A DNA stretch of 64,000 nt from an uncultured Bacteroidota bacterium (lineage in GTDB: Bacteria > Bacteroidota > Bacteroidia > Chitinophagales > Chitinophagaceae): the NCBI GenBank assembly GCA_963741345.1, contig CAVUHS010000002.1, positions 260,003 through 324,002 on the forward strand, in the 5' to 3' direction. The position numbers and the translations under genes were made by a program. Under the pieces are notes generated by a model that was given only the letters and a program-made list of their open reading frames with translations, made no database searches and had not been told where the DNA came from. Shown here piece after piece: positions 19,502-51,830 of this stretch (within the stretch, counting starts at the first letter, position 1; each line of letters opens with the position of its first letter).

Positions 19502-20203
19502 ATGAAGTTCTGCTTATCTGCTTTTGTTTTACTGATGGTGTCTGTGTCCATTTCCTGCGCTCAACCTGTTGCTAATGACGGACTCGCTTCTAAGATATCT
19601 GACAGTCTGGTAAACATCCTTTCTTCCAACTATTCCAAAGCCATCCGGGACAGTATCGTTAGAGATGTAAAAGACAGTCTTCGCTGGGTAAATTTGAAAA
19701 GCACGCTCTTTTATCCCGTTATCAAAAACAGCGAATGGTCTGGCGTCCTACCGGTTAACGGAATCGGGGAAAGACCGGATTCAACTATGAAATACAAATT
19801 ATTATTTAATATGACGCTATGGCCCAAGGATAGTGTCAGTCGAAAAAAGCTAAATGAGGGTCTTGCTGAAATCGGCCGGGTTATTAATCTGCATGTGGCT
19901 GCCGGAGTTCCAAAGGAAAATCTTGAATTGGTTATAGTAATACACGGAGGCGCTCTGAATACTTATCTGAATAATGAAGCTTATCATAAGAAATTTAATG
20001 TGGATAATCCGAACCTGGCCATCCTTAAACAATTTTCGGATCTTCATTCCAGGTTACTTGCCTGTGGACAGGCGGAGCAATTCTTTAGTATCACGGCGGA
20101 AACCATGATTCCCCAGGTAAAAACAGCATTAAGTGCGCAGGTTGTTCTTTCAACCTATCAGTTAAAGGGATATGTATTGTACAATATTCAGGAAGAAAAA
20201 TAA
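19502..20203 (+). CDS. Exported DsrE/DsrF-like protein
   Basis: Possible lipobox ISC; RVINLHVAAGV, VVIHGGA, LLACGQ with conserved Cys. Confidence 0.78.
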   Translation: MKFCLSAFVLLMVSVSISCAQPVANDGLASKISDSLVNILSSNYSKAIRDSIVRDVKDSLRWVNLKSTLFYPVIKNSEWSGVLPVNGIGERPDSTMKYKLLFNMTLWPKDSVSRKKLNEGLAEIGRVINLHVAAGVPKENLELVIVIHGGALNTYLNNEAYHKKFNVDNPNLAILKQFSDLHSRLLACGQAEQFFSITAETMIPQVKTALSAQVVLSTYQLKGYVLYNIQEEK

Positions 20204-20245: not shown

Positions 20246-21109
20246 CTAGGCGCCCAGCCTTTTTAATTTTCTGATTTGTAAAAACAGGTAAACTAAAACA
20301 CCCCAGACAAGTGCAATAACAGAGTATGCCATCCATTCCAACCAGAGAGGTGACCATCCTCTTCTCGCAAAAAGGGACCTTTTATTAAATTCAGAGATAT
20401 ATTGCGTAGGCTTCCCCCAGGGGACAGATTTTTCGGTTGTCAGGTTTCCATAGACATCATTGTCTTCTACTTTGGCAATAATGATCAGGTTCCCTGCAGA
20501 ATCTCCCGGCAGATCATTGCGTTTAAATTCAGCACTGATCGCACCCAGGGAGTCCGTCGTATAAGACGGCGTTTCACTTACATTTAAATCACCTCCTAGC
20601 CTCTTCACAGCAATTTTTAGATCTACTCCTTTAACGGGTGTCCAGAGTGAATCCTTGTATTCTGTTATAACGGCCGTAATATTCCGATCAGCAGCTGTAT
20701 CAATTTTGATTCGCGCTTTGGTAAGGTCAAAACTTGTCTGAACAGCATCGTATAATCCGGAGGAATCTGAAATAGCCAGAAAACTGTGTTTCCGCGATTT
20801 GTTCCATTCATCTTTTGCGGCAGCGGATATCAGCATGTTAGCCTGCCCCTTTTCGTTTGTTACCGTTTTGCCCAGCAAATTGTCCGCACTTTCTGAATTG
20901 ATATAAAATCGAAGGCCGATCCCGGCCACGGGTTGAAATTTTCCATTGATCTTAGTCTTAGTATTCGCCTTCAGATATTGCTGCTGGTTGTTGTCATTAA
21001 AATACCCGAGACCTAGAATCAGGTTGTTTTTTGCTGCCTGGGAAAATGCCAGGTCGGTTATAAAAACCGAAAATATGATGGAAAGGCAGATATATTTAAG
21101 CTTTTTCAT
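20246..21109 (-). CDS. Hypothetical periplasmic Ig-like protein with C-terminal membrane anchor
   Basis: Signal peptide, beta-rich body, C-terminal TM helix plus basic tail; overlaps nrfD stop. Confidence 0.65.
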   Translation of the reverse strand: MKKLKYICLSIIFSVFITDLAFSQAAKNNLILGLGYFNDNNQQQYLKANTKTKINGKFQPVAGIGLRFYINSESADNLLGKTVTNEKGQANMLISAAAKDEWNKSRKHSFLAISDSSGLYDAVQTSFDLTKARIKIDTAADRNITAVITEYKDSLWTPVKGVDLKIAVKRLGGDLNVSETPSYTTDSLGAISAEFKRNDLPGDSAGNLIIIAKVEDNDVYGNLTTEKSVPWGKPTQYISEFNKRSLFARRGWSPLWLEWMAYSVIALVWGVLVYLFLQIRKLKRLGA

Positions 21110-22403
21110 GCTCGTCAATTTCATCGATTGTTTCTTGAATTGGAATGATTGGAAAAATCCGGGCGAAAATGGTAACGATCAACATCATCCCGGCCAGGGA
21201 ACCCCCGGCTATTGCCCATTCTTCCCAGCTGGGGAAATAATGACGGTATGAAACCGGGACGTCACGCATCGGTAAAAAAGGATGCAACAAAGTCGGCGTA
21301 ACAATAAGATATCTTTTGAACCAGGAACCAACTACGACTAAGCTGCCGGCGATAAATGCCGGGAATGGTCTTCTGCCTTTTCTATTGACTAGAATAAGGA
21401 TCGGTAGAAACATCGAAGTTGAAATGGCGAACCAGAACACGGTTGAATATTCCCCGGTAAATAGTCCCAGCAAATGATCTGCATCCGTTTTTTTCATTTT
21501 GAATGCAGGTACCAGGAATTCGTTTACGTTAAAATAAAGATATATCAGGGCCAACAGGACTACTATTTTTCCCATCCGGTCAAAATTGTTTATGGTTATG
21601 TACTTATCTAGTTTATAAGCTTCACGGAAAACATACATCGCGACCAGTACTGCACCTGCCCCGACTAGAAATGCTCCTGAAATGAAATAAGCACCGAAGT
21701 TCGTACTATCCCAACCCGGGCGATAGGTCGTGGCGAAAAGCCAGGATGTTACCGTGTGAATAGCAAATGCAACTGGAATAATAGTAATGGACAACATATT
21801 GACAGACCGGCGATTTATTTTTTTTTGCTGCGGAGTACCTTTCCAGAACGACCCCAGAAATGCATACATTTTGTCGAGCCTGTTGCCTGCTTCTTTCTTA
21901 AATTTCAACATTATACTAAAGTCAGGTAAAAGCGGAAAATATAAAAGCAAAAGGCTGATAAAGAAATAAGTCGTAATGACGATTACATCCCAGATGATCG
22001 GGGATTGAAGCCGGCCATGAATGAACAGGTTATAAAATCTGTCTGGTCGGCCCATATCTACAACGATAATTATAGAGGCAAATGTGATTGCAGAAACAGC
22101 TATTATTTCGGCTATTCTTGTCAATGGGGTACTCCATTTTACATTACTCAAACGGAACACGGCTGTAATCAATGAACCCACCAGGCTGATTGCTACAAAG
22201 AAAACAAAATTGGATATATAGATCCCCCAGGACGCATAGTCCCGCATGGACGTAACGACCAGACCCTTTGATAACTGTCGTATATATGCAACCAATCCGA
22301 CAACACAAATAAAGAGCAATACGACAACCCATATTTTTCCCCGCCTGCCAAATTTTTTCGGAAGCAGATCTTCAATTACTTTCTGTCTGGCTAAAATTTC
22401 CAC
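21096..22403 (-). CDS. nrfD: NrfD/PsrC-family quinol-interacting membrane subunit
   Basis: WGIYISNFVFF, PLTRIAE, DMGRPDR, SPIIWD, HTVTSW motifs; multiple TM helices. Confidence 0.9.
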   Translation of the reverse strand: MEILARQKVIEDLLPKKFGRRGKIWVVVLLFICVVGLVAYIRQLSKGLVVTSMRDYASWGIYISNFVFFVAISLVGSLITAVFRLSNVKWSTPLTRIAEIIAVSAITFASIIIVVDMGRPDRFYNLFIHGRLQSPIIWDVIVITTYFFISLLLLYFPLLPDFSIMLKFKKEAGNRLDKMYAFLGSFWKGTPQQKKINRRSVNMLSITIIPVAFAIHTVTSWLFATTYRPGWDSTNFGAYFISGAFLVGAGAVLVAMYVFREAYKLDKYITINNFDRMGKIVVLLALIYLYFNVNEFLVPAFKMKKTDADHLLGLFTGEYSTVFWFAISTSMFLPILILVNRKGRRPFPAFIAGSLVVVGSWFKRYLIVTPTLLHPFLPMRDVPVSYRHYFPSWEEWAIAGGSLAGMMLIVTIFARIFPIIPIQETIDEIDEHEKA

Positions 22404-22406
22404 GGC

Positions 22407-23348
22407 TTATGATTTAATTTTTTCCTTTTTTTCTTCACCCTGATCATCTTTGTTTTCGAATGGAAAATTTCGGCTGACTGGTGGTAAATAATATACGCTG
22501 GGTTTTGTTCCAAGATCTTCCATTAAACGATATCCGGCTTTGTCACGTATCAGTTCACTAAAACGGAATGTTTCAGCCCCGTTAGTTACAGAATCCTCGA
22601 TCATGTCTCCGAAAAAGAAAACACCATTCGGACATGCTGAAACGCAATGGGGTAGTTCCCCTTTCCGGGTCATATCGGCGCAGAAATCACATTTGCTGAC
22701 TGTACCGATTTTTTGCGGGATACTGGTTTCACAGGAATAAGGCTGAGCTGCGACTTCCTTGGGTAACTCGGGTGTTTCCCAATTGAAGACACGCGTAGAA
22801 TACGGACAGGCGGCCATGCAGAAACGACAACCGATACATCGGTCACTATCGATCAACACAATTCCATCTTCGCGTTTAAATGTTGCATCCACCGGACAGA
22901 CCTTTACACAGGGAGGTTCATCACAATGCATACAGGTAGTGGGTTCCCAATAAGGAGCCGTATACTCTGCATCCTGCATGGGATAAATCTTGATCCAGTT
23001 GAGACCGGGATTTAAATCGTGGGCATGGTTACAGGACGATTGACAGGCTTTTACGCTTTTACAGCGGGAAAGATCAATTACCATGACAAATTTTTTACCC
23101 GGGATACCAATTCTGGCTTCAGCATTGGTAACAGGTGGCAGATCAGGAACGGGTCTTAAAAAGGCTTCATCCATTTCTATGACTTCGCCGTCTACTGACA
23201 GAAGTTTTACCATCTTTCCTGTAGGATGTGACAATTCATTCGCCCTGGCATCAAACGGATTTGGCTTTGAAGAACATCCTGCGAGTGTGGCACCAGCCAG
23301 CAATCCCGCCGCTAAGAAATCCCTTCTGGATGTATCATTTGTACTCAT
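22407..23348 (-). CDS. NrfC/DmsB-like iron-sulfur protein, Tat lipoprotein
   Basis: SRRDFL...LAGC; CMHCDEPPCVKVCP, CIGCRFCMAACP, CDFC...CVSACP; first Cys group degenerate (CKSVKAC). Confidence 0.92.
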   Translation of the reverse strand: MSTNDTSRRDFLAAGLLAGATLAGCSSKPNPFDARANELSHPTGKMVKLLSVDGEVIEMDEAFLRPVPDLPPVTNAEARIGIPGKKFVMVIDLSRCKSVKACQSSCNHAHDLNPGLNWIKIYPMQDAEYTAPYWEPTTCMHCDEPPCVKVCPVDATFKREDGIVLIDSDRCIGCRFCMAACPYSTRVFNWETPELPKEVAAQPYSCETSIPQKIGTVSKCDFCADMTRKGELPHCVSACPNGVFFFGDMIEDSVTNGAETFRFSELIRDKAGYRLMEDLGTKPSVYYLPPVSRNFPFENKDDQGEEKKEKIKS

Positions 23349-23367
23349 TGCACTCGTATTAATTCAA

Positions 23368-23637
23368 TTATTTTTTTACCCAGTCCCGCAATTCCTGATC
23401 GGAAACTTTTCCCTTCCTTGTTTTTATATTTGAAATGTCCACTTCTAACAGCTTCCCATCCTGTGATAACACTTTCATTGTTTGAGGTTCTTTCGGCGGG
23501 GCGCAAGAGATAACCTGTTTCTTTTTCGAAAACAGGCTGGTTGCTTTCAAGAGGGAAAAAAGAGAAAGTACGCCGATACTGGTCAGTAATTTTCTTCTGG
23601 TTCTTACTTCCGGATTTGTTGATGGTAGCTTTTCCAT
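23368..23637 (-). CDS. Small Tat-signal hypothetical protein
   Basis: TRRKLL plus hydrophobic stretch; lies in the operon; shares a motif with the FeS protein N-terminus. Confidence 0.7.
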   Translation of the reverse strand: MEKLPSTNPEVRTRRKLLTSIGVLSLFSLLKATSLFSKKKQVISCAPPKEPQTMKVLSQDGKLLEVDISNIKTRKGKVSDQELRDWVKK

Positions 23638-23701
23638 ATTACTTATTAACAGGCATGGCAGGTCGCTTTCCCATCCAGCCGGGTTTTTGGGAAGTATTAA
23701 T

Positions 23702-24103
23702 TTATTTTTTCAGCGTCCGCATATAGATTACCAGGTCCCATAAATCATCTGCATCCGGAATTTTCTTTTTGAAACTGGGCATATCATCCCGTCCTTCAGA
23801 AACTTTATAAAATAGTGAACCGTCAGACTGAGATTGAAAGGAGGCTACTGTCATGTCATTGGGCTGCGTTTTCAACTGGGCAGCTTTTGAACCATCTCCA
23901 AGGCCAGTTTTACCATGACAGGAAGAACAATGCTGGCTCCATAATGCCTTGCCTGCTGTAATTGATTCTGAGGAAGATTTAACCGGATTTGGTGTTTTGG
24001 CCGCTTTTTCAGGAACAGGCCATGGTTTAGGCTGTTGATTTGTTCTAAAACCAACAGTAAGAAGGAATAATCCAGAGATAGCACTAAGAATAAGAACTTT
24101 CAT
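23702..24103 (-). CDS. Periplasmic monoheme cytochrome c
   Basis: Signal peptide; CSSCH; distal Met in DDMPSF. Confidence 0.92.
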   Translation of the reverse strand: MKVLILSAISGLFLLTVGFRTNQQPKPWPVPEKAAKTPNPVKSSSESITAGKALWSQHCSSCHGKTGLGDGSKAAQLKTQPNDMTVASFQSQSDGSLFYKVSEGRDDMPSFKKKIPDADDLWDLVIYMRTLKK

Positions 24104-24154
24104 AATTTGAAATTTGATGAAACTTTGTCGAAATAAATTTTCATTAATAAGGCA

Positions 24155-25084
24155 TTAAAAATTCCAAAGCCTTGAGATATTAAATCCAATCACGAACTGA
24201 CCTTTTCGGTAATCATTCTGATTGAAGACGGTATTATTAGTCGGTAGCGTGTATCCATAGTTACCCGCAAAAATCTGAAAATCATGACCGCTGGTTGACA
24301 TTTCTAACCCGAGACTGATGTTTGGTTCGGGATTATTCGTAACATTTTGAGTAAGCGGTTGGTCGAAATTGAAGATAATTGCCATCCCAGGAGTAATTTG
24401 ATATCTGCCTCCTGCGCAGAAAGTCCAGTTGTTATTCTGCATCTGCGACTGGATCTTTCCGGTGGAGTCGTAATAGCCAGCCACATTATTGAAATGAGTA
24501 ATGGCAATACCGACCTGGAGAGACAGTTTATCATTTATTTTCCGCGCTATCAGGAGCTGGTTGAAATAACTGAACCGGTCTGCAGTTGTAACAATATAAT
24601 TACTGTTGCTGGCTTTCGTTGTATTCATAGCCATCAGGCCATAATAAGTAACAGAAACGGGCATGGAACCATCCTTCGTTTGTTTCAGGAGTGCATATTT
24701 CACGTTTCCGTTCACTTCCATATTATAGTTGCCGAATCCAAATCCGACCTGCAAATCCTTAACCGGCACATAGCTCATCGCAAACTGCATATTAGCCGTT
24801 TCAAAAATTCCAAAAAAATTAGAAATACCAGCATTAACGGTTCCAAAATGGTGCATGATATAAAACTCGAAAGTCTTTTTAATCGGTACCATTACAGTCT
24901 GATCGTCTATCAGGTAGTTGGAACCAAAAGTATTTTTCGTATAAGACTTCATCTTTTTTACCAGCACAACTGCCGCAGTAGAGTCCTGGGCCATCAGATC
25001 CGTAGAATCGGTTACGATAACTACCGCCAGCATCAGGAATGCCCTGAGGCAGGCTGATGAATAATAAGATAATATTTTTCGCAT
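24155..25084 (-). CDS. DUF5777-family outer-membrane beta-barrel
   Basis: HHFG, SYFNQLLIARK, STSGHDFQIF; C-terminal GFNISRLWNF; ATG 25084. Confidence 0.82.
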   Translation of the reverse strand: MRKILSYYSSACLRAFLMLAVVIVTDSTDLMAQDSTAAVVLVKKMKSYTKNTFGSNYLIDDQTVMVPIKKTFEFYIMHHFGTVNAGISNFFGIFETANMQFAMSYVPVKDLQVGFGFGNYNMEVNGNVKYALLKQTKDGSMPVSVTYYGLMAMNTTKASNSNYIVTTADRFSYFNQLLIARKINDKLSLQVGIAITHFNNVAGYYDSTGKIQSQMQNNNWTFCAGGRYQITPGMAIIFNFDQPLTQNVTNNPEPNISLGLEMSTSGHDFQIFAGNYGYTLPTNNTVFNQNDYRKGQFVIGFNISRLWNF

Positions 25085-25094
25085 AGTGCTTGAT

Positions 25095-25496
25095 TTAGTT
25101 GTTAAGCGCTCCCTGATAGATCCAGTTATAAACCTTATCGTTGATGGCCGGGTCCGGACCACTTCCCAAAGGCATTACAGGTGATAATTTCCCGGTTAAC
25201 CACCCCATCAGTTCACTATTAGTCGGATCAAATGGAACGATCATGTCTTCATCAAATAGAGACTGGTAAGCGAACCCTTGTGACAAATTGGGTGTTTGTC
25301 CGCCGGAGACATGGCAGCCGGCCTTTGCACAACTAGCCGTGAAAATGGGTTGAATTTCCTTCGAAAAGCTGATGGTAGCCGTATCTATGGGAATCGGGGA
25401 TTCTTCTACTACCGTGGTATGCTTTGTACAGCCAGGAATTGTAAACATTCCTATGATAGCCAGGCCCGCTGTGAATGACATAATTTTCTTAAACAT
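25095..25496 (-). CDS. Lipoprotein cytochrome c with atypical CX4CH motif
   Basis: Lipoprotein signal; ISFSKEIQPIF..CAKAGCH; VMP; WIYQGALNN. Confidence 0.75.
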   Translation of the reverse strand: MFKKIMSFTAGLAIIGMFTIPGCTKHTTVVEESPIPIDTATISFSKEIQPIFTASCAKAGCHVSGGQTPNLSQGFAYQSLFDEDMIVPFDPTNSELMGWLTGKLSPVMPLGSGPDPAINDKVYNWIYQGALNN

Positions 25497-25530
25497 GATT
25501 ACTAACTTTTATATTAGGAAATCCTGGTTT

Positions 25531-26877
25531 TTATTTTTTGAATTTCAACAGCAGATTTGGCTGGATTCCGTGCTGATTGTTCGATTGGTTCCAGATCGCG
25601 AGCCCGAATTGCTGATCCTGCAGGCTGGTGAAATCTATGTCCTGTTTCAATGTATCCCCGGTTTTTAATTTGCGACTATATTCTATGATCCAACCACTTC
25701 CGGTATATTTTGCGAAGCAGGTAATATCGGCCCTTCCACCCTGCAGAGGAGAGGCAATATAACTGGGGAAGCATTTCGGGCCGTCTCCGCCATAAACCGG
25801 ATCGCCGGTTCTCTGGTAATCGGTACCGACGTTTGGATCTATCGTCCCGCCTCCTGTATAGGTTAAGACACCGTTTGAGTCTACTCCTGTCACCTTAAAT
25901 GCTTTTCCGCCAGGTAAGGTATCGGTGGCCAGTATATAATAATATGCTGACTGATTAGGTATGATCCAGGCAGGAACTGTTACAGAAGCACCTGTGCCGT
26001 TCAGTTTTAGATTCTGTCTGTTATTGCTGGCTCCCTGTGGAGGTGTGGAAGCAGTATAAGTAGGTGCAAAGGGCCAGGTTGTTGAAGCTCCCGACACGGT
26101 TATTCCATCAACGTGACGTCCGTTTCCGGAACCCCCCACCAGGCTGGTTACAGCAGGGCCACCGGCCCAGTCCTGATAATTATCATCCATCTGGTTGAAG
26201 ATGACATCCCTGCTTAAGTGCGCCCACCACATATCAATTTTTTCATAGGCGCCATTCGTATAATGATTCCCGCTGCCTGCATTGGATTTTACAACAGTCG
26301 GTGTAACAGAAAAATCTGTATAGGGTGTAAAAACATGGCAGCTGCCATAGCAGGTTTCTGAAATAAACTTGGGTGTGGAAAAATCGATATTCCATAACAT
26401 GGCTATCTTATCTTCTCCAAATCCGCCTCTTGTAACCTGTCCGTTGTTATTATAAGTATTACTAGTCGGTTCCTGCGTCCAGAGCTTTTTTCCGGGGTCA
26501 AAATACCATGTCGCCACGTATACACTGTTAGTATTATCAGCATACTGAACCAGGAAATAGATGTTATTATTGTCATACATGGACTGAATGGTAGCAGGAT
26601 ATTGATCCCCGATATATCCGGTAAAAAGATTATTTCCGGGATCAGGTACTGTCGGAACAATATTAAGTTTTGCCGCACTATCCCAGATTGCGTCGATCGT
26701 TCCATCAATAGCCGGGGCTGTCGGTGTTTTATAAGACAATAGCTCCGATGTGCTGGGAGTATTAGTTGGTGGCGGTGTAGTTGGCGTTGCCCCCCCTATT
26801 ACCTGATCGGTTTTTGTACAATACATAAACAGGAATGTAGAAGAAACAAACAGTATCAGGATTAAGACTTTTTTCAT
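25531..26877 (-). CDS. Ethylbenzene-dehydrogenase-related (EB_dh/DOMON-like) heme lipoprotein
   Basis: Lipoprotein Cys; APAIDG..D..W, EDKIAMLW, CYGSCH, DMWWAH, W.IEYSRKL.TGD. Confidence 0.78.
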   Translation of the reverse strand: MKKVLILILFVSSTFLFMYCTKTDQVIGGATPTTPPPTNTPSTSELLSYKTPTAPAIDGTIDAIWDSAAKLNIVPTVPDPGNNLFTGYIGDQYPATIQSMYDNNNIYFLVQYADNTNSVYVATWYFDPGKKLWTQEPTSNTYNNNGQVTRGGFGEDKIAMLWNIDFSTPKFISETCYGSCHVFTPYTDFSVTPTVVKSNAGSGNHYTNGAYEKIDMWWAHLSRDVIFNQMDDNYQDWAGGPAVTSLVGGSGNGRHVDGITVSGASTTWPFAPTYTASTPPQGASNNRQNLKLNGTGASVTVPAWIIPNQSAYYYILATDTLPGGKAFKVTGVDSNGVLTYTGGGTIDPNVGTDYQRTGDPVYGGDGPKCFPSYIASPLQGGRADITCFAKYTGSGWIIEYSRKLKTGDTLKQDIDFTSLQDQQFGLAIWNQSNNQHGIQPNLLLKFKK

Positions 26878-26943: not shown

Positions 26944-26980
26944 CAAACAACGATCATGGTTTGTTATGATTTAAATCATA
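26944..26980 (-). promoter_or_regulatory. FNR/Crp-like palindrome with a half-site 22 bp away
   Basis: Perfect palindrome TATGATTTAAATCATA at 26965-26980; half-site ATCAT at 26953-26957; upstream of the redox operon. Confidence 0.65.
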
Positions 26981-48812: not shown

Positions 48813-49328
48813 TTATTTTTTGAAGTAAAATCCAAGCTCGGTATCAATATTCATCATATCAATACGTTCTGGTTCTTTGCCGGGATCAAAGAGATAAATA
48901 CCGCATATATCATTAACAGCATTCAGATCGACGACGCGGTTACGGCTATCAGTCCTGATAAAATTGATCCAACGGGCTTTTGAGACATCGACGACATTTA
49001 TATTTTGCCAATCCCTTTGTATGAGAAGTCTTGCATTCCTCATTTGATAAAAACAATCATGCATGAGGCTTTCAAAAATCATCTTCTCATTCACTTCTTT
49101 AACTTTTATCAGCTGGAGTGAATCGGGAAGATAAAACACTGCCGAACGGGACCTGATAATTACCGTGTCATTATAATTGGAGGGCGGTTTTTTCCGGTTA
49201 TCTTTTTTCAGACCAGCCAAACTATCTGTCACGTGATTATTCGTTACAGGACTTTGGCGCCCGGTACAGGAAAATAATGTCGTGACCATCATAATAACCA
49301 TTAATATGCCACCTAAGAAGAGACGCAC
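48813..49328 (-). CDS. Hypothetical lipoprotein
   Basis: Lipobox FSC. Confidence 0.6.
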   Translation of the reverse strand: MRLFLGGILMVIMMVTTLFSCTGRQSPVTNNHVTDSLAGLKKDNRKKPPSNYNDTVIIRSRSAVFYLPDSLQLIKVKEVNEKMIFESLMHDCFYQMRNARLLIQRDWQNINVVDVSKARWINFIRTDSRNRVVDLNAVNDICGIYLFDPGKEPERIDMMNIDTELGFYFKK

Positions 49329-49505
49329 TTTTATTATAGTTTCGTTACGTCAAAATAGTGATTACAGATTTCGGGATTCTGCAAAAATTCCTTCTACATT
49401 TATTTGGTAAAGATAGTAGATCAGAAAAAACCCCCGAGTATTTTGAATCAGGGGTTGTTGGTTAGTATTTGCGGACTCATCCGCTATTAGCTGCATGCTT
49501 TCATT

Positions 49506-50499
49506 CTAATAGTTCCACAATTTAGTTATGTTAAACCCGATTAGCCACTGTCCTCCTTTAACAGACTGTCCGGTTGCCTTATCTGTATAGTTAAAGGGAC
49601 TATTGCTATTGTAAAGATTATTATACTGGGGATTTAACCAGGCGTAATTGGTCACAAACATCTGGAAACAGTGACCACTGGTACTGAACTCTACACCAAA
49701 AGCCAGATTCGGACTCGGATTATAAGATGGATGGGATGTTAATGGCTGATCATAATCTATAAGCAGCGCGGTTACATCAGTGATCCGGTACCGGGCGGCC
49801 ACGGATATGGCAAAATGATTATTGTACATGGACTGGTATGTATCAGTACCTGTGCTGTCGTTCTTGGTATAGTATCCACCGACGGCATTCTGGTGTGACA
49901 AACTACCGGCCACCTGCACTGAAAATTTATCGTTGATTTTTCTGGCAACGATTATCTGGGAAAAAAAGCTGACCCGGTCGCTGGTATGCTGGATTTCACT
50001 GCCATCATAAAGCGTTGCACCATCCTTCGTATTCACCGCAACGTCTCCAAAAAAAGTTACACTTACCGGGTATTTGTCCCGGAGTCTGGGTGATGATGGC
50101 GTATTTCGCACTACCATCCCAAAGTAAATCGGTTTTGGTAATCCCGATGCCCAGACTCAGGTTTTTGATCGGGCTGTAGCTGGCCCCGATGCGGATATTA
50201 AAGGAAGGTGAAAAAAGCCCAAACATATCCTGGTAACCATTGCCCAATACGCCAAACCGATGCTGGAAGTCCAGTTCCAATGTGCCTTTAACGGGAACCA
50301 TCACGGTTTGATTATCGATAATCCACTGACTCTGGAAAGTATTCTTTACCGGCCTCGGTTTCGAAACAGCCTGAGTTGTACTGGCGGACGCAGTGCTGTC
50401 GTTTTGTGCCTGTGCAGCAACATGCAGAAGAAGCAGTCCCATGCTGAAGCCGATTATGGTTGTCAGCCTGCATAGCTTCCTGGTATAATTAATTTTCAT
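49506..50499 (-). CDS. DUF5777-family beta-barrel, +1 frameshift near 50076
   Basis: ORFs 50005-50499 and 49506-50117 join as TQTPG-KYPVSVT; paralog of 24155-25084 (QIIVARKINDK, STSGH.FQ, GFNITKLW). Confidence 0.8.
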
Positions 50500-50520
50500 T
50501 GATTATTTTTTTAAAATCAC

Positions 50521-50904
50521 TTAATTATTTGGCGCACCGTTTCTTATCCAGTCATACACTTTCTGTCTGTCTGAAGCAGAAGGAATGAATTCTTTCATGT
50601 CGCTATTGATCATGATATACAAAATACTCTGCTTGGGAACCACTGTATTCACGAATCCTCCGTTGATGATTTCATTGTAGGAAATGTCTGTATTCATATA
50701 TGGATGATGGCCTCCGCTCACATGGCAGCCAGATTTCGCACAATCTGTATTAAAAAGAGGCGCTAAATCAGTACCATAATTCACTGCCTGGGGAGGACCT
50801 TCCGGATTTGCGACTGATGGCGGAATATTTATATCCTTGTAACATCCGGTGAAAATAAAACCCATGGCGAAGAGAAGACCGGCATATATTATTAGTCGTT
50901 TCAT
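50521..50904 (-). CDS. Lipoprotein cytochrome c with CX4CH motif
   Basis: Lipobox TGC; CAKSGCHVSGG; WIRNGAPNN; paralog of 25095-25496. Confidence 0.75.
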   Translation of the reverse strand: MKRLIIYAGLLFAMGFIFTGCYKDINIPPSVANPEGPPQAVNYGTDLAPLFNTDCAKSGCHVSGGHHPYMNTDISYNEIINGGFVNTVVPKQSILYIMINSDMKEFIPSASDRQKVYDWIRNGAPNN

Positions 50905-50924
50905 TATTACTTCTTTTAGGGTGA

Positions 50925-51722
50925 TTATTTATTGTTATAATTCATGTTACACTCAATATCAATCTTATCCGAAATACTGGTACTGGTGACTCCGAAGTCT
51001 CGGCAATTGAACTGGAAGGTTAGTTGTAATCCGAACACGCTGTAAGGAGCAGTCGTTCCAGCGCCCACAACCGCCTTCTTGATATACTTCATTCTGCCCA
51101 CAATTGACTGGGTTAAAGGAGCATTCAACAGGCCTTTCCATGTCAGATTGAATGTTACGATATAGTCCTGGCTCTGGGTGTCAAATTCTACTTTGGTGGA
51201 TTGAATTCTTGCAATATTGGTATCAGTCAGGTTTTGTATGCCCTTAATGATTTTTATGGTTCCGAGATTTGGAATGTTACATCCGGTATCTCTTCCCGGC
51301 TCACCGGTATTTGAAGTATTAATCTGGACATATCCATTAATATAAGTTTTAGACGGATCATTTTCATAAAATGCCCAGGAAGAATCTAACAGGGGCTGTC
51401 CGGTGGTAGTATACATCACCCGCTTAGCATCTGTTACATCGTGCATACCAAATTGATTAAAGCGTCCGGTCAATAGCCCGGCTGCGCCAATATAACTACC
51501 TGACCACAATACACTGGAGTGAACTTTATCCAGTTTCCATTGTGTTGTATCACCTTTTGTCATAGATCCAGGCAGAAGGACATCTGTTCCATGTACGATT
51601 ACCGGTGTAGTCGTTGCCGGAGCTGGTGGTGGCAGATTTTCATGCGTGCAACCAACCACATACCCATATCCACTGATAAGAACAAGTATTACAAGAAGGG
51701 TATTATTGCTAAATAGTTTCAT
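50925..51722 (-). CDS. YceI-family lipoprotein
   Basis: Lipobox VGC; WKLDKVHSSV, GRFNQF, NTGEPGRD, FNCRDFGV. Confidence 0.78.
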   Translation of the reverse strand: MKLFSNNTLLVILVLISGYGYVVGCTHENLPPPAPATTTPVIVHGTDVLLPGSMTKGDTTQWKLDKVHSSVLWSGSYIGAAGLLTGRFNQFGMHDVTDAKRVMYTTTGQPLLDSSWAFYENDPSKTYINGYVQINTSNTGEPGRDTGCNIPNLGTIKIIKGIQNLTDTNIARIQSTKVEFDTQSQDYIVTFNLTWKGLLNAPLTQSIVGRMKYIKKAVVGAGTTAPYSVFGLQLTFQFNCRDFGVTSTSISDKIDIECNMNYNNK

Positions 51723-51764
51723 AAAAAACTTTTTAAGGAGAAAAAATAAATGACTAACCGGGGA

Positions 51765-51830
51765 CAAAACTATTTAAGGACGCAACAGCGAATGATGACT
51801 TATATCATAATTAACCGTGACTTTCGTCAC
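51765..51830 (-). promoter_or_regulatory. -7 element plus tandem FNR-like boxes
   Basis: TAGTTTTG at 51765-51772; ATGAC-N4-ATCAT at 51795-51808; GTGAC-N4-GTCAC at 51817-51830. Confidence 0.65.

Follow-up and report, generated by a model that had tools for sequence, protein, structure and literature searches.

A Bacteroidota operon that joins a molybdoenzyme-free NrfCD module to a cassette of haem-motif lipoproteins and a DUF5777 beta-barrel

The window analysed here is a stretch of 64 000 nucleotides from the genome of an uncultured bacterium of the Chitinophagaceae (Bacteroidota; GenBank assembly GCA_963741345.1, contig CAVUHS010000002.1, forward-strand positions 260 003 to 324 002). Reading of its open reading frames (ORFs) showed that positions 20246–26877 carry eight genes, all on the minus strand, in which a quinone-interacting NrfCD module stands together with two lipoproteins bearing haem motifs and an outer-membrane beta-barrel of the family DUF5777. 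The intergenic gaps range from –29 to 64 bp, and the eight genes form a single tight operon, which is set apart by a terminator-like hairpin located after the tnaA-like upstream gene. Gene families were assigned with Pfam and NCBIfam models, and the resulting families and coordinates (Table 1) confirmed the eight co-oriented genes that a first-pass annotation, made from the letters of the window, had listed.

Table 1. Features of the operon, of its upstream region and of the second, YceI-type cassette in the window
Feature	Position	Strand	Basis or remark
EB_dh-type (NxrC/EbdC-like) haem-domain lipoprotein, CX3CH	25531–26877	–	PF09459, 76.3 bits (cut-off 33.3)
FoxE/PSCyt1-type monohaem cytochrome c lipoprotein, 133 aa, CX4CH	25095–25496	–	Profile match, motif
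DUF5777 outer-membrane beta-barrel	ORF 24155–25162	–	PF19089, 225.7 bits (cut-off 23.1); true start probably Met at 25084 (gene 24155–25084)
Class I cytochrome c, one CXXCH	23702–24103	–	Cytochrome_CBB3 and Cytochrom_C families
Tat-like mini-protein, 89 aa, RR motif	23368–23637	–	Sequence reading
Tat-exported lipoprotein (Tat motif and lipobox), four FeS-cluster motifs, PsrB/DsrO-like	22407–23348	–	Pfam/NCBIfam
NrfD-family quinone-interacting membrane subunit, ten-helix ActC/DsrP type	21096–22403	–	PF03916, 107.3 bits (cut-off 25.8)
Bitopic Ig-like subunit, 292 aa: signal peptide, two Ig/FN3-like domains, C-terminal transmembrane helix	20246–21124	–	AlphaFold2 model
Crp/Fnr-type palindrome TGATTTAAATCA	26967–26978	–	Upstream of operon
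Half-site TGA	26954–26956	–	22 bp downstream of the TGATTTAAATCA box; whole element 26954–26978
YceI-type cassette, tandem boxes included	48813–51829	–	Four genes
YceI-like lipoprotein	50925–51767	–	YceI-type cassette
CX4CH cytochrome	50521–50904	–	YceI-type cassette
DUF5777 barrel, two frames	49506–50499	–	YceI-type cassette
171-aa protein	48813–49328	–	YceI-type cassette
Tandem boxes of YceI-type cassette	51796–51829		Upstream of cassette

The NrfD-family protein has approximately ten hydrophobic segments, lacks CXXCH and is a member of PF03916; a search for relatives of solved structure returned only ActC chains of alternative complex III (ACIII), namely 6f0k_C, 6btm_C, 6lod_C and 8k9e_C. 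The class I cytochrome c, which keeps its CXXCH in 71 of 71 homologues, has an N-terminal hydrophobic segment and may be soluble or anchored. The mini-protein, whose RR motif resembles that for twin-arginine translocation (Tat), recurs in 67 of the best 80 related loci (see below) and contains a 14-residue match to residues 47–60 of NrfC, at the N-terminus of this iron–sulfur (FeS) subunit. The Ig-like subunit is present in all 80 of these loci and in every distant cluster. Its AlphaFold2 model (predicted local distance difference test, pLDDT, 87) shows two beta-sandwich domains and a C-terminal transmembrane helix, and a fold search with it yielded generic Ig/FN3 tandems only, none pointing to a function.

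Complexes of the NrfD type are normally understood via their catalytic subunit. Among the eight operon genes the Pfam and NCBIfam models detected no molybdopterin protein, no multihaem protein, no ActA and no ActB, in agreement with the first-pass annotation, and neither ActA nor ActB was found in any of the 80 related loci. That annotation would have yielded to a cognate molybdoenzyme encoded elsewhere. However, the single PF00384 match in the genome, which is 89% complete, is a 1049-aa ActB, and a true molybdenum bis-pyranopterin guanine dinucleotide (Mo-bisPGD) protein from a related locus, used as a query, also matched only this ActB; the assembly thus contains no other Mo-bisPGD enzyme, and none that could be the Tat-exported partner of an FeS subunit as in Psr, Phs, Ttr or Arr. 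This ActB is part of a canonical ACIII cluster (contig C1), in which ActA (six CXXCH), ActB, ActC, ActD, ActE and ActF are followed by a caa3-type oxidase. Since MoaC is encoded, the molybdenum cofactor is made for other enzymes. The best NCBIfam model for the FeS subunit is DsrO, at 184 bits under its cut-off of 200, and the DsrP model reached 133 bits against a cut-off of 350; no DsrM, DsrK or DsrJ gene lies near the operon, which is not a DsrMKJOP system.

The FeS subunit itself has been remodelled. In the alignment its first Cys motif reads C-x5-C-x3-C, against CxxCxxCxxxC in PsrB, and the remaining three Cys groups align with those of PsrB. The second Cys of the first motif is absent from every barrel-linked member of the clade, including distant ones at 47–55% identity, and a His four residues past the last Cys of the degenerate motif is invariant clade-wide (NrfC residues 93–112, window 22980–23070). 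PsrB and ArrB give the protein better scores than ActB does, and it is a variant of the four-cluster PsrB/NrfC type, not a textbook member. In NarH/PsrB-type structures, the cluster closest to the catalytic subunit is ligated by the first three Cys of this group. A sister clade, comprising NrfC and NrfD only and 35–38% identical to the barrel-linked clade, retains the full CxxCxxCxxxC motif (CTGCGxC...C); at three loci (L143–L145) its genes lie directly downstream of an 817-aa Mo-bisPGD enzyme, and L143 additionally encodes multihaem cytochromes. The clade nearest to this NrfCD in the phylum is thus, by sequence, a molybdenum-linked one. As the Cys is lost in the barrel-linked clade and kept in the molybdenum-linked sister clade, its loss tracks the loss of the molybdoenzyme. 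The invariant His could be a replacement cluster ligand, by analogy with the distal cluster of [NiFe] hydrogenases.

A scan of GTDB species-representative genomes with NrfD recovered more than 545 related loci, mostly from Chitinophagales of soils and lakes; Niastella vici DJ57 (L013) and Limnovirga soli KCS-6 (L018) are examples of carriers that have been cultured. The best 80 are 68–88% identical; their named organisms are nearly all Chitinophagales, and the eight-gene order recurs many times among them. Fully flanked loci, defined by at least 7 kb upstream and at least 5 kb downstream of NrfD, number 35 of the 80, and a DUF5777 barrel stands near NrfD in 34 of these 35. For a phylum-wide survey an even sample of 301 Bacteroidota genomes was used, in which the NrfD clade (at least 260 bits and at least 34% identity) is clearly apart from ActC (approximately 150 bits and 30%). 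Fourteen of the 301 genomes carry the clade; in nine of the 13 carriers other than the present genome, representing five families, the barrel lies within 6 kb of the clade NrfD. Rare linkage of barrel and NrfCD, by which the first-pass annotation had proposed to judge its own case, is therefore not what the genomes display. In the distant loci the gene content is kept and the order varies: cytochrome c can be the last gene, the cassette can be divergent or downstream, the NrfC–NrfD–Ig–cytochrome c set can be duplicated in tandem, and at one locus three cassettes follow one another. Altogether at least six different gene arrangements retain the linkage between barrel and NrfCD, and the tie of NrfCD to these outer-membrane genes is non-random. 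That five families keep this content while the order is shuffled is good evidence that the parts are functionally coupled, and it also means that the order itself mirrors no pathway, so that the earlier suggestion of a gene order following the electron path is not supported.

Two of the distant loci have features of their own. At L138:10849–14491 (Chitinophagaceae), the three cassettes are separated from the NrfCD module by genes for a U32-family protein and an MMPL lipid transporter, an arrangement that hints at an isoprenoid or quinone lipid connection. At L139:6927–14080, from another family of the same class, the tandem duplicate of the NrfC–NrfD–Ig–cytochrome c set lies behind one EB_dh/barrel cassette.

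DUF5777 is far more widespread than the NrfD clade, being present in 127 of the 301 genomes. When 40 barrel-centred loci were inspected, the barrel was preceded in 33 of the 40 by a PSCyt1-type haem-c protein of approximately 137 aa and, likewise in 33 of the 40, by a YceI protein of approximately 184 aa; an OB-fold (tRNA_anti-like) protein is also frequent. Only the DUF5777 subfamily closest to the present barrel adjoins NrfCD. The outer cassette is thus a variant of a phylum-wide cytochrome/YceI/barrel triad, one branch of which has gained a dedicated quinone module.

The CX4CH of the smaller lipoprotein is kept in 54 of 55 homologues, and in the alignment its position corresponds to a canonical CXXCH in two orthologues (L113 and L140). 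A Met-Pro pair is near-invariant and a C-terminal W-I-x-x-G-A motif invariant in the family, whose profile matches FoxE 5mab (E 2.2e-6, positions 20–108); used on its own, the sequence matches the haem-c domain of hydrazine synthase alpha. With its haem motif, Met-Pro pair and W-I-x-x-G-A motif, the protein is assigned to the FoxE/PSCyt1-type cytochromes c on sequence grounds. FoxE, a dihaem cytochrome of the His/Met type, has been described as taking electrons from Fe(II) (PMC10654088). The EB_dh lipoprotein belongs to the family (PF09459) of haem-binding beta-sandwich proteins like EbdC and NxrC and has a weak match to NxrC 7b04_C. Its lipobox Cys is conserved in 31 of 32 sequences and its CX3CH in 28 of 29 homologues, as well as in six distant orthologues down to 31% identity, whereas EbdC lacks such a covalent-type CX3CH. 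The EB_dh, CX4CH and class I proteins have one haem motif each.

An acidic export signal marks the surface lipoproteins of Bacteroidota. In the CX4CH lipoprotein the residues that follow the lipid Cys are non-acidic (consensus C-Y-K-T-T-T), and those of the EB_dh and YceI lipoproteins are ambiguous as to surface exposure. Of the surface haem lipoproteins proposed in the first-pass annotation, the haem motifs are supported, being conserved, with CX4CH aligned to a real CXXCH, but the surface location is not supported, the CX4CH lipoprotein having no acidic export residues.

The AlphaFold2 model of the barrel (pLDDT 84, predicted template modelling score 0.82) has approximately 12 strands, in keeping with the PF19089 assignment, and its best fold matches in the PDB are NanC, the COG4313 channel and FapF. 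By comparison, Cyc2 has approximately 17 strands, and MtrB, PioB and MtoB have 26 (PMC10654088). A folded cytochrome inside a barrel of approximately 12 strands is therefore unlikely, as is a porin–cytochrome with its haem protein enclosed, and the model makes the passage of a small substrate more plausible. The operon has neither the approximately 26-strand barrel with multihaem cytochrome of the MtrAB type nor a Cyc2-type fusion, its cytochrome and barrel being encoded by separate genes and the barrel being smaller. A complex prediction for the barrel and the CX4CH lipoprotein gave a score of 0.02, which has no bearing on whether the two bind. Across 47 barrels, with identities as low as 27%, two His residues never vary (H46 and H235 in mature-barrel numbering, window 24158–24988); they are located on strands two apart across the barrel seam and might together provide a luminal site for a metal or haem.

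A second cassette, of the YceI type, is encoded in the same window (Table 1). Furthermore, the inner module is duplicated at C5:1231083–1234903 (62–84% identity), with no cassette nearby. A tree of NrfD places the C5 copy together with L014 and L016, two contiguous clusters of the YceI type (93% identity; Shimodaira–Hasegawa-like approximate likelihood ratio support 97–99), and the relative that hosts L014 also carries an EB_dh-type cluster, L008, so that clusters of the two types coexist in relatives. The C5 module is the probable quinone module of the YceI-type cassette, and this grouping implies that the genome has two systems, one of them split. A 193-aa membrane protein encoded upstream of the C5 module was compared with the 194-aa protein of YceI cassettes and is not homologous to it.

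TGA-N6-TCA boxes like that upstream of the operon were found upstream of 48 of 54 orthologous cassettes, against a background of 0.11 per 260 nt, and 31 have at least two boxes, mostly at 22-bp spacing. The whole genome contains 28 tandem box pairs of this spacing, compared with an estimated one or so expected by chance; further tandem boxes are at C1:724884–724917, C1:723177–723210 and C4:225566–225599. One pair sits between a REC–cNMP–Crp fusion regulator and a CcoI-like ATPase, 700 bp downstream of which a haem–copper oxidase subunit I begins, and other pairs precede a Usp protein, a pyridoxamine-oxidase-like protein and a P-type ATPase. Tandem boxes flank two response-regulator–Crp fusion genes (REC, cNMP-binding and HTH_Crp domains), the ccoI–cbb3 region, Usp genes and P-type ATPases. 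The set looks like an uncharacterised low-oxygen or stress regulon of Bacteroidota, with a box pattern that resembles FNR/FixK-type low-oxygen regulons, and the operon is probably switched on at low oxygen.

With moderate confidence, we interpret the operon as two coupled halves of an envelope electron-transfer system, a molybdenum-free quinone module and an outer-membrane redox cassette, whose probable task is electron transfer between the quinone pool of the membrane and the outer membrane. The inner half, consisting of the ActC-like NrfD, the Tat-exported FeS lipoprotein, the Ig-like subunit, the Tat-like mini-protein and the monohaem cytochrome c, would act as a menaquinol/menaquinone:cytochrome c oxidoreductase free of a catalytic subunit, and its remodelled FeS cluster (second Cys lost, a His past the motif) probably now faces a cytochrome instead of a molybdoenzyme. 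The outer half, with the FoxE/PSCyt1-type lipoprotein, the EB_dh lipoprotein and the 12-strand DUF5777 channel, would be located at the outer membrane, where it may oxidise or reduce a small redox-active substrate that either traverses the channel or is located in the membrane; in the paralogous cassette a YceI-type lipid/quinone binder would take the place of EB_dh. Periplasmic cytochrome c would shuttle electrons between the halves, and the Crp/Fnr-type tandem boxes would induce the operon jointly with cbb3 oxidase genes, probably at low oxygen. We lean towards quinol as the electron donor, Fe(II) oxidation being the main alternative.

Several points weigh against this interpretation. Class I and FoxE-type haems usually have high potentials, so that either direction of flow would fit. 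We infer the direction and the substrate, as we do the physical coupling of the halves and the loading of haem, and here contact between the proteins and haem attachment count as weak points. Across the phylum, NrfCD is missing from the surroundings of most DUF5777 cassettes, so that the cassette may use different electron partners or serve a purpose other than respiration. The C5 module stands alone, so that physical linkage is not obligatory.

Other explanations share some of this evidence. The inner module might be a self-sufficient miniature ACIII that passes electrons from menaquinol through cytochrome c to cbb3 at low oxygen, the cassette being merely co-regulated, for example for the uptake or handling of lipid, haem or metal. 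The C5 paralogue without a cassette, the tandem boxes in front of the cbb3 region, the restriction of solved NrfD relatives to ActC subunits and the wide occurrence of DUF5777/YceI/cytochrome triads without NrfCD would all agree with this. We nevertheless consider it unlikely, because the linkage is kept across at least six gene arrangements and five families, because the grouping of the C5 copy with YceI-linked contiguous clusters suggests a recent split over independence, and because C1 already encodes a canonical ACIII beside a caa3-type oxidase. A true porin–cytochrome conduit, running from surface monohaem lipoproteins to minerals, humics or electrodes outside the cell by way of the barrel or alongside it, would be improbable given a NanC/FapF-like barrel of approximately 12 strands, as compared with approximately 17 in Cyc2 and 26 in MtrB (PMC10654088), a CX4CH lipoprotein almost free of acidic residues after its lipid Cys, and the absence from the operon of multihaem chains spanning the membrane. 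It draws on the constant adjacency of haem lipoprotein and barrel, on the FoxE homology, which points to metal redox chemistry, and on the precedent of Cyc2, a workable pairing of a porin with a one-haem cytochrome (10.1101/228056).

Equally doubtful is a cassette for iron or haem acquisition, or for envelope lipid/quinone handling by a YceI/BcnA-like lipocalin, to which NrfCD would only supply reducing power, for instance for Fe(III) chelates. YceI-type proteins do stand in place of EB_dh in the paralogous cassette and prevail in the triads across the phylum, and in one genome the U32-family protein and the MMPL lipid transporter stand between cassettes and module; however, the neighbourhoods contain no conserved TonB-dependent receptor, siderophore or haem-uptake gene, and the regulation looks to be of the oxygen/redox type, not of the Fur type. 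Finally, service of NrfCD to a molybdoenzyme or sulfur-cycle enzyme encoded elsewhere (Psr/Ttr/DsrOP-like) is largely refuted, and we regard it as extremely improbable. DsrO and DsrP are the best NCBIfam models, but both score under their cut-offs; MoaC indicates that the cofactor is made, but the sole PF00384 match in the 89%-complete assembly is ActB; a DsrE-like gene adjoins the operon, but none of the 80 related loci has such a neighbour; and the partner-facing Cys motif is degenerate clade-wide, whereas it is intact in the molybdenum-linked sister clade. The sulfur redox chemistry suggested in the first-pass annotation rested solely on that non-conserved neighbour and, with the Dsr models under their cut-offs, is not upheld; as a whole, its interpretation is partly supported.

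ACIII is a quinol:cytochrome c oxidoreductase. ACIII (ActABCDEF; 6f0k, 6btm, 6lod and 8k9e) and the inner module share a ten-helix NrfD-type subunit, and both have a four-cluster FeS protein and a monohaem cytochrome c and no active molybdenum site. However, the operon lacks the pentahaem ActA and the ActB1 pseudo-molybdopterin domain, has one NrfD gene per module where ACIII has two NrfD-type subunits (ActC and ActF), and has the Ig-like bitopic subunit and the mini-protein where ACIII has ActD and ActE. The relationship to ACIII seems to hold for NrfD only, the FeS subunit being nearer to PsrB/ArrB. With the Psr/Ttr/Arr-type enzymes of the sister clade the module shares NrfC/NrfD similarity, topology and Tat export, and it differs from them in having neither a catalytic subunit nor multihaem cytochromes and in the Cys missing from its first motif.

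In neutrophilic iron oxidisers, electrons pass from Cyc2, a fused monohaem cytochrome–porin, to periplasmic Cyc1 and on to an ACIII-like complex or cbb3 (PMC10654088; 10.1101/228056). The present system resembles this chain in its one-haem cytochrome plus small barrel, its periplasmic monohaem cytochrome c, its NrfD-type quinone complex and its link to cbb3 and low oxygen; the CX4CH protein is furthermore homologous to the haem domain of Rhodobacter ferrooxidans FoxE, with one such domain here and two in FoxE. It differs in its separate cytochrome and barrel genes and in its approximately 12 strands, against approximately 17, and also in its carriers, which are heterotrophic Bacteroidota and for which iron oxidation is no more than a possibility. 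MtrCAB and PioAB/MtoAB share with it the concept of an outer-membrane barrel and cytochromes joined to a quinol dehydrogenase, but their 26-strand barrel encloses a decahaem protein (PMC10654088), whereas here there are approximately 12 strands and monohaem proteins. The extracytoplasmic Cbp2D and Cbp2E of Cellvibrio japonicus combine YceI-like (ubiquinone-8-type) and c-type cytochrome domains and have been proposed to deliver electrons outside the cell (PMC12542752). Their combination of YceI-like and cytochrome domains recalls the YceI-type cassette, but they are secreted multidomain CBM2 proteins tied to a lytic polysaccharide monooxygenase (LPMO) and have no barrel or NrfCD. No AA10 LPMO was found in the present genome, and electron supply to such an enzyme was set aside.

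Our literature searches, including those for YceI, cytochrome and outer membrane and for extracellular electron transfer in Bacteroidetes, found no paper on this cluster or on DUF5777; a paper on iron limitation in Riemerella lists only a mildly induced YceI gene. A 2021 review of NrfD proteins distinguishes 15 subunit classes, none of which is like this clade (PMC8076601). A clade without a catalytic subunit, in which the partner-facing FeS cluster has been rebuilt, would add a class to the NrfD family. If the link to the cassette is functional, abundant heterotrophic Bacteroidota would gain a dedicated low-oxygen route for envelope or extracellular redox reactions, and DUF5777 and the phylum-wide cytochrome/YceI/barrel triads would gain their first functional handle. 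Only tentatively do we suggest, as a possibility on the doubtful side, that aerobic Bacteroidota own a trans-envelope respiratory pathway, leading from NrfCD and menaquinone through monohaem cytochromes to a cassette of haem protein, lipid binder and 12-strand barrel. Such a counterpart to Cyc2, Mto and Mtr might serve Fe(II) oxidation, or the reduction of metals, humics or oxidants, by soil and lake Chitinophagaceae at low oxygen, and would, if true, be relevant to the cycling of iron, manganese and humics.

Two minor observations concern the surroundings of the operon. The DsrE/DsrF-like gene that converges on it (19502–20203, plus strand), absent from all 80 related loci, is probably unrelated to it. 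In the YceI-type cassette, the two overlapping frames of the barrel indicate a single frameshift near 50060–50110; since COX1 of the caa3 oxidase on C1 is likewise split and ActC on C1 looks short, an assembly indel is as likely as a pseudogene.

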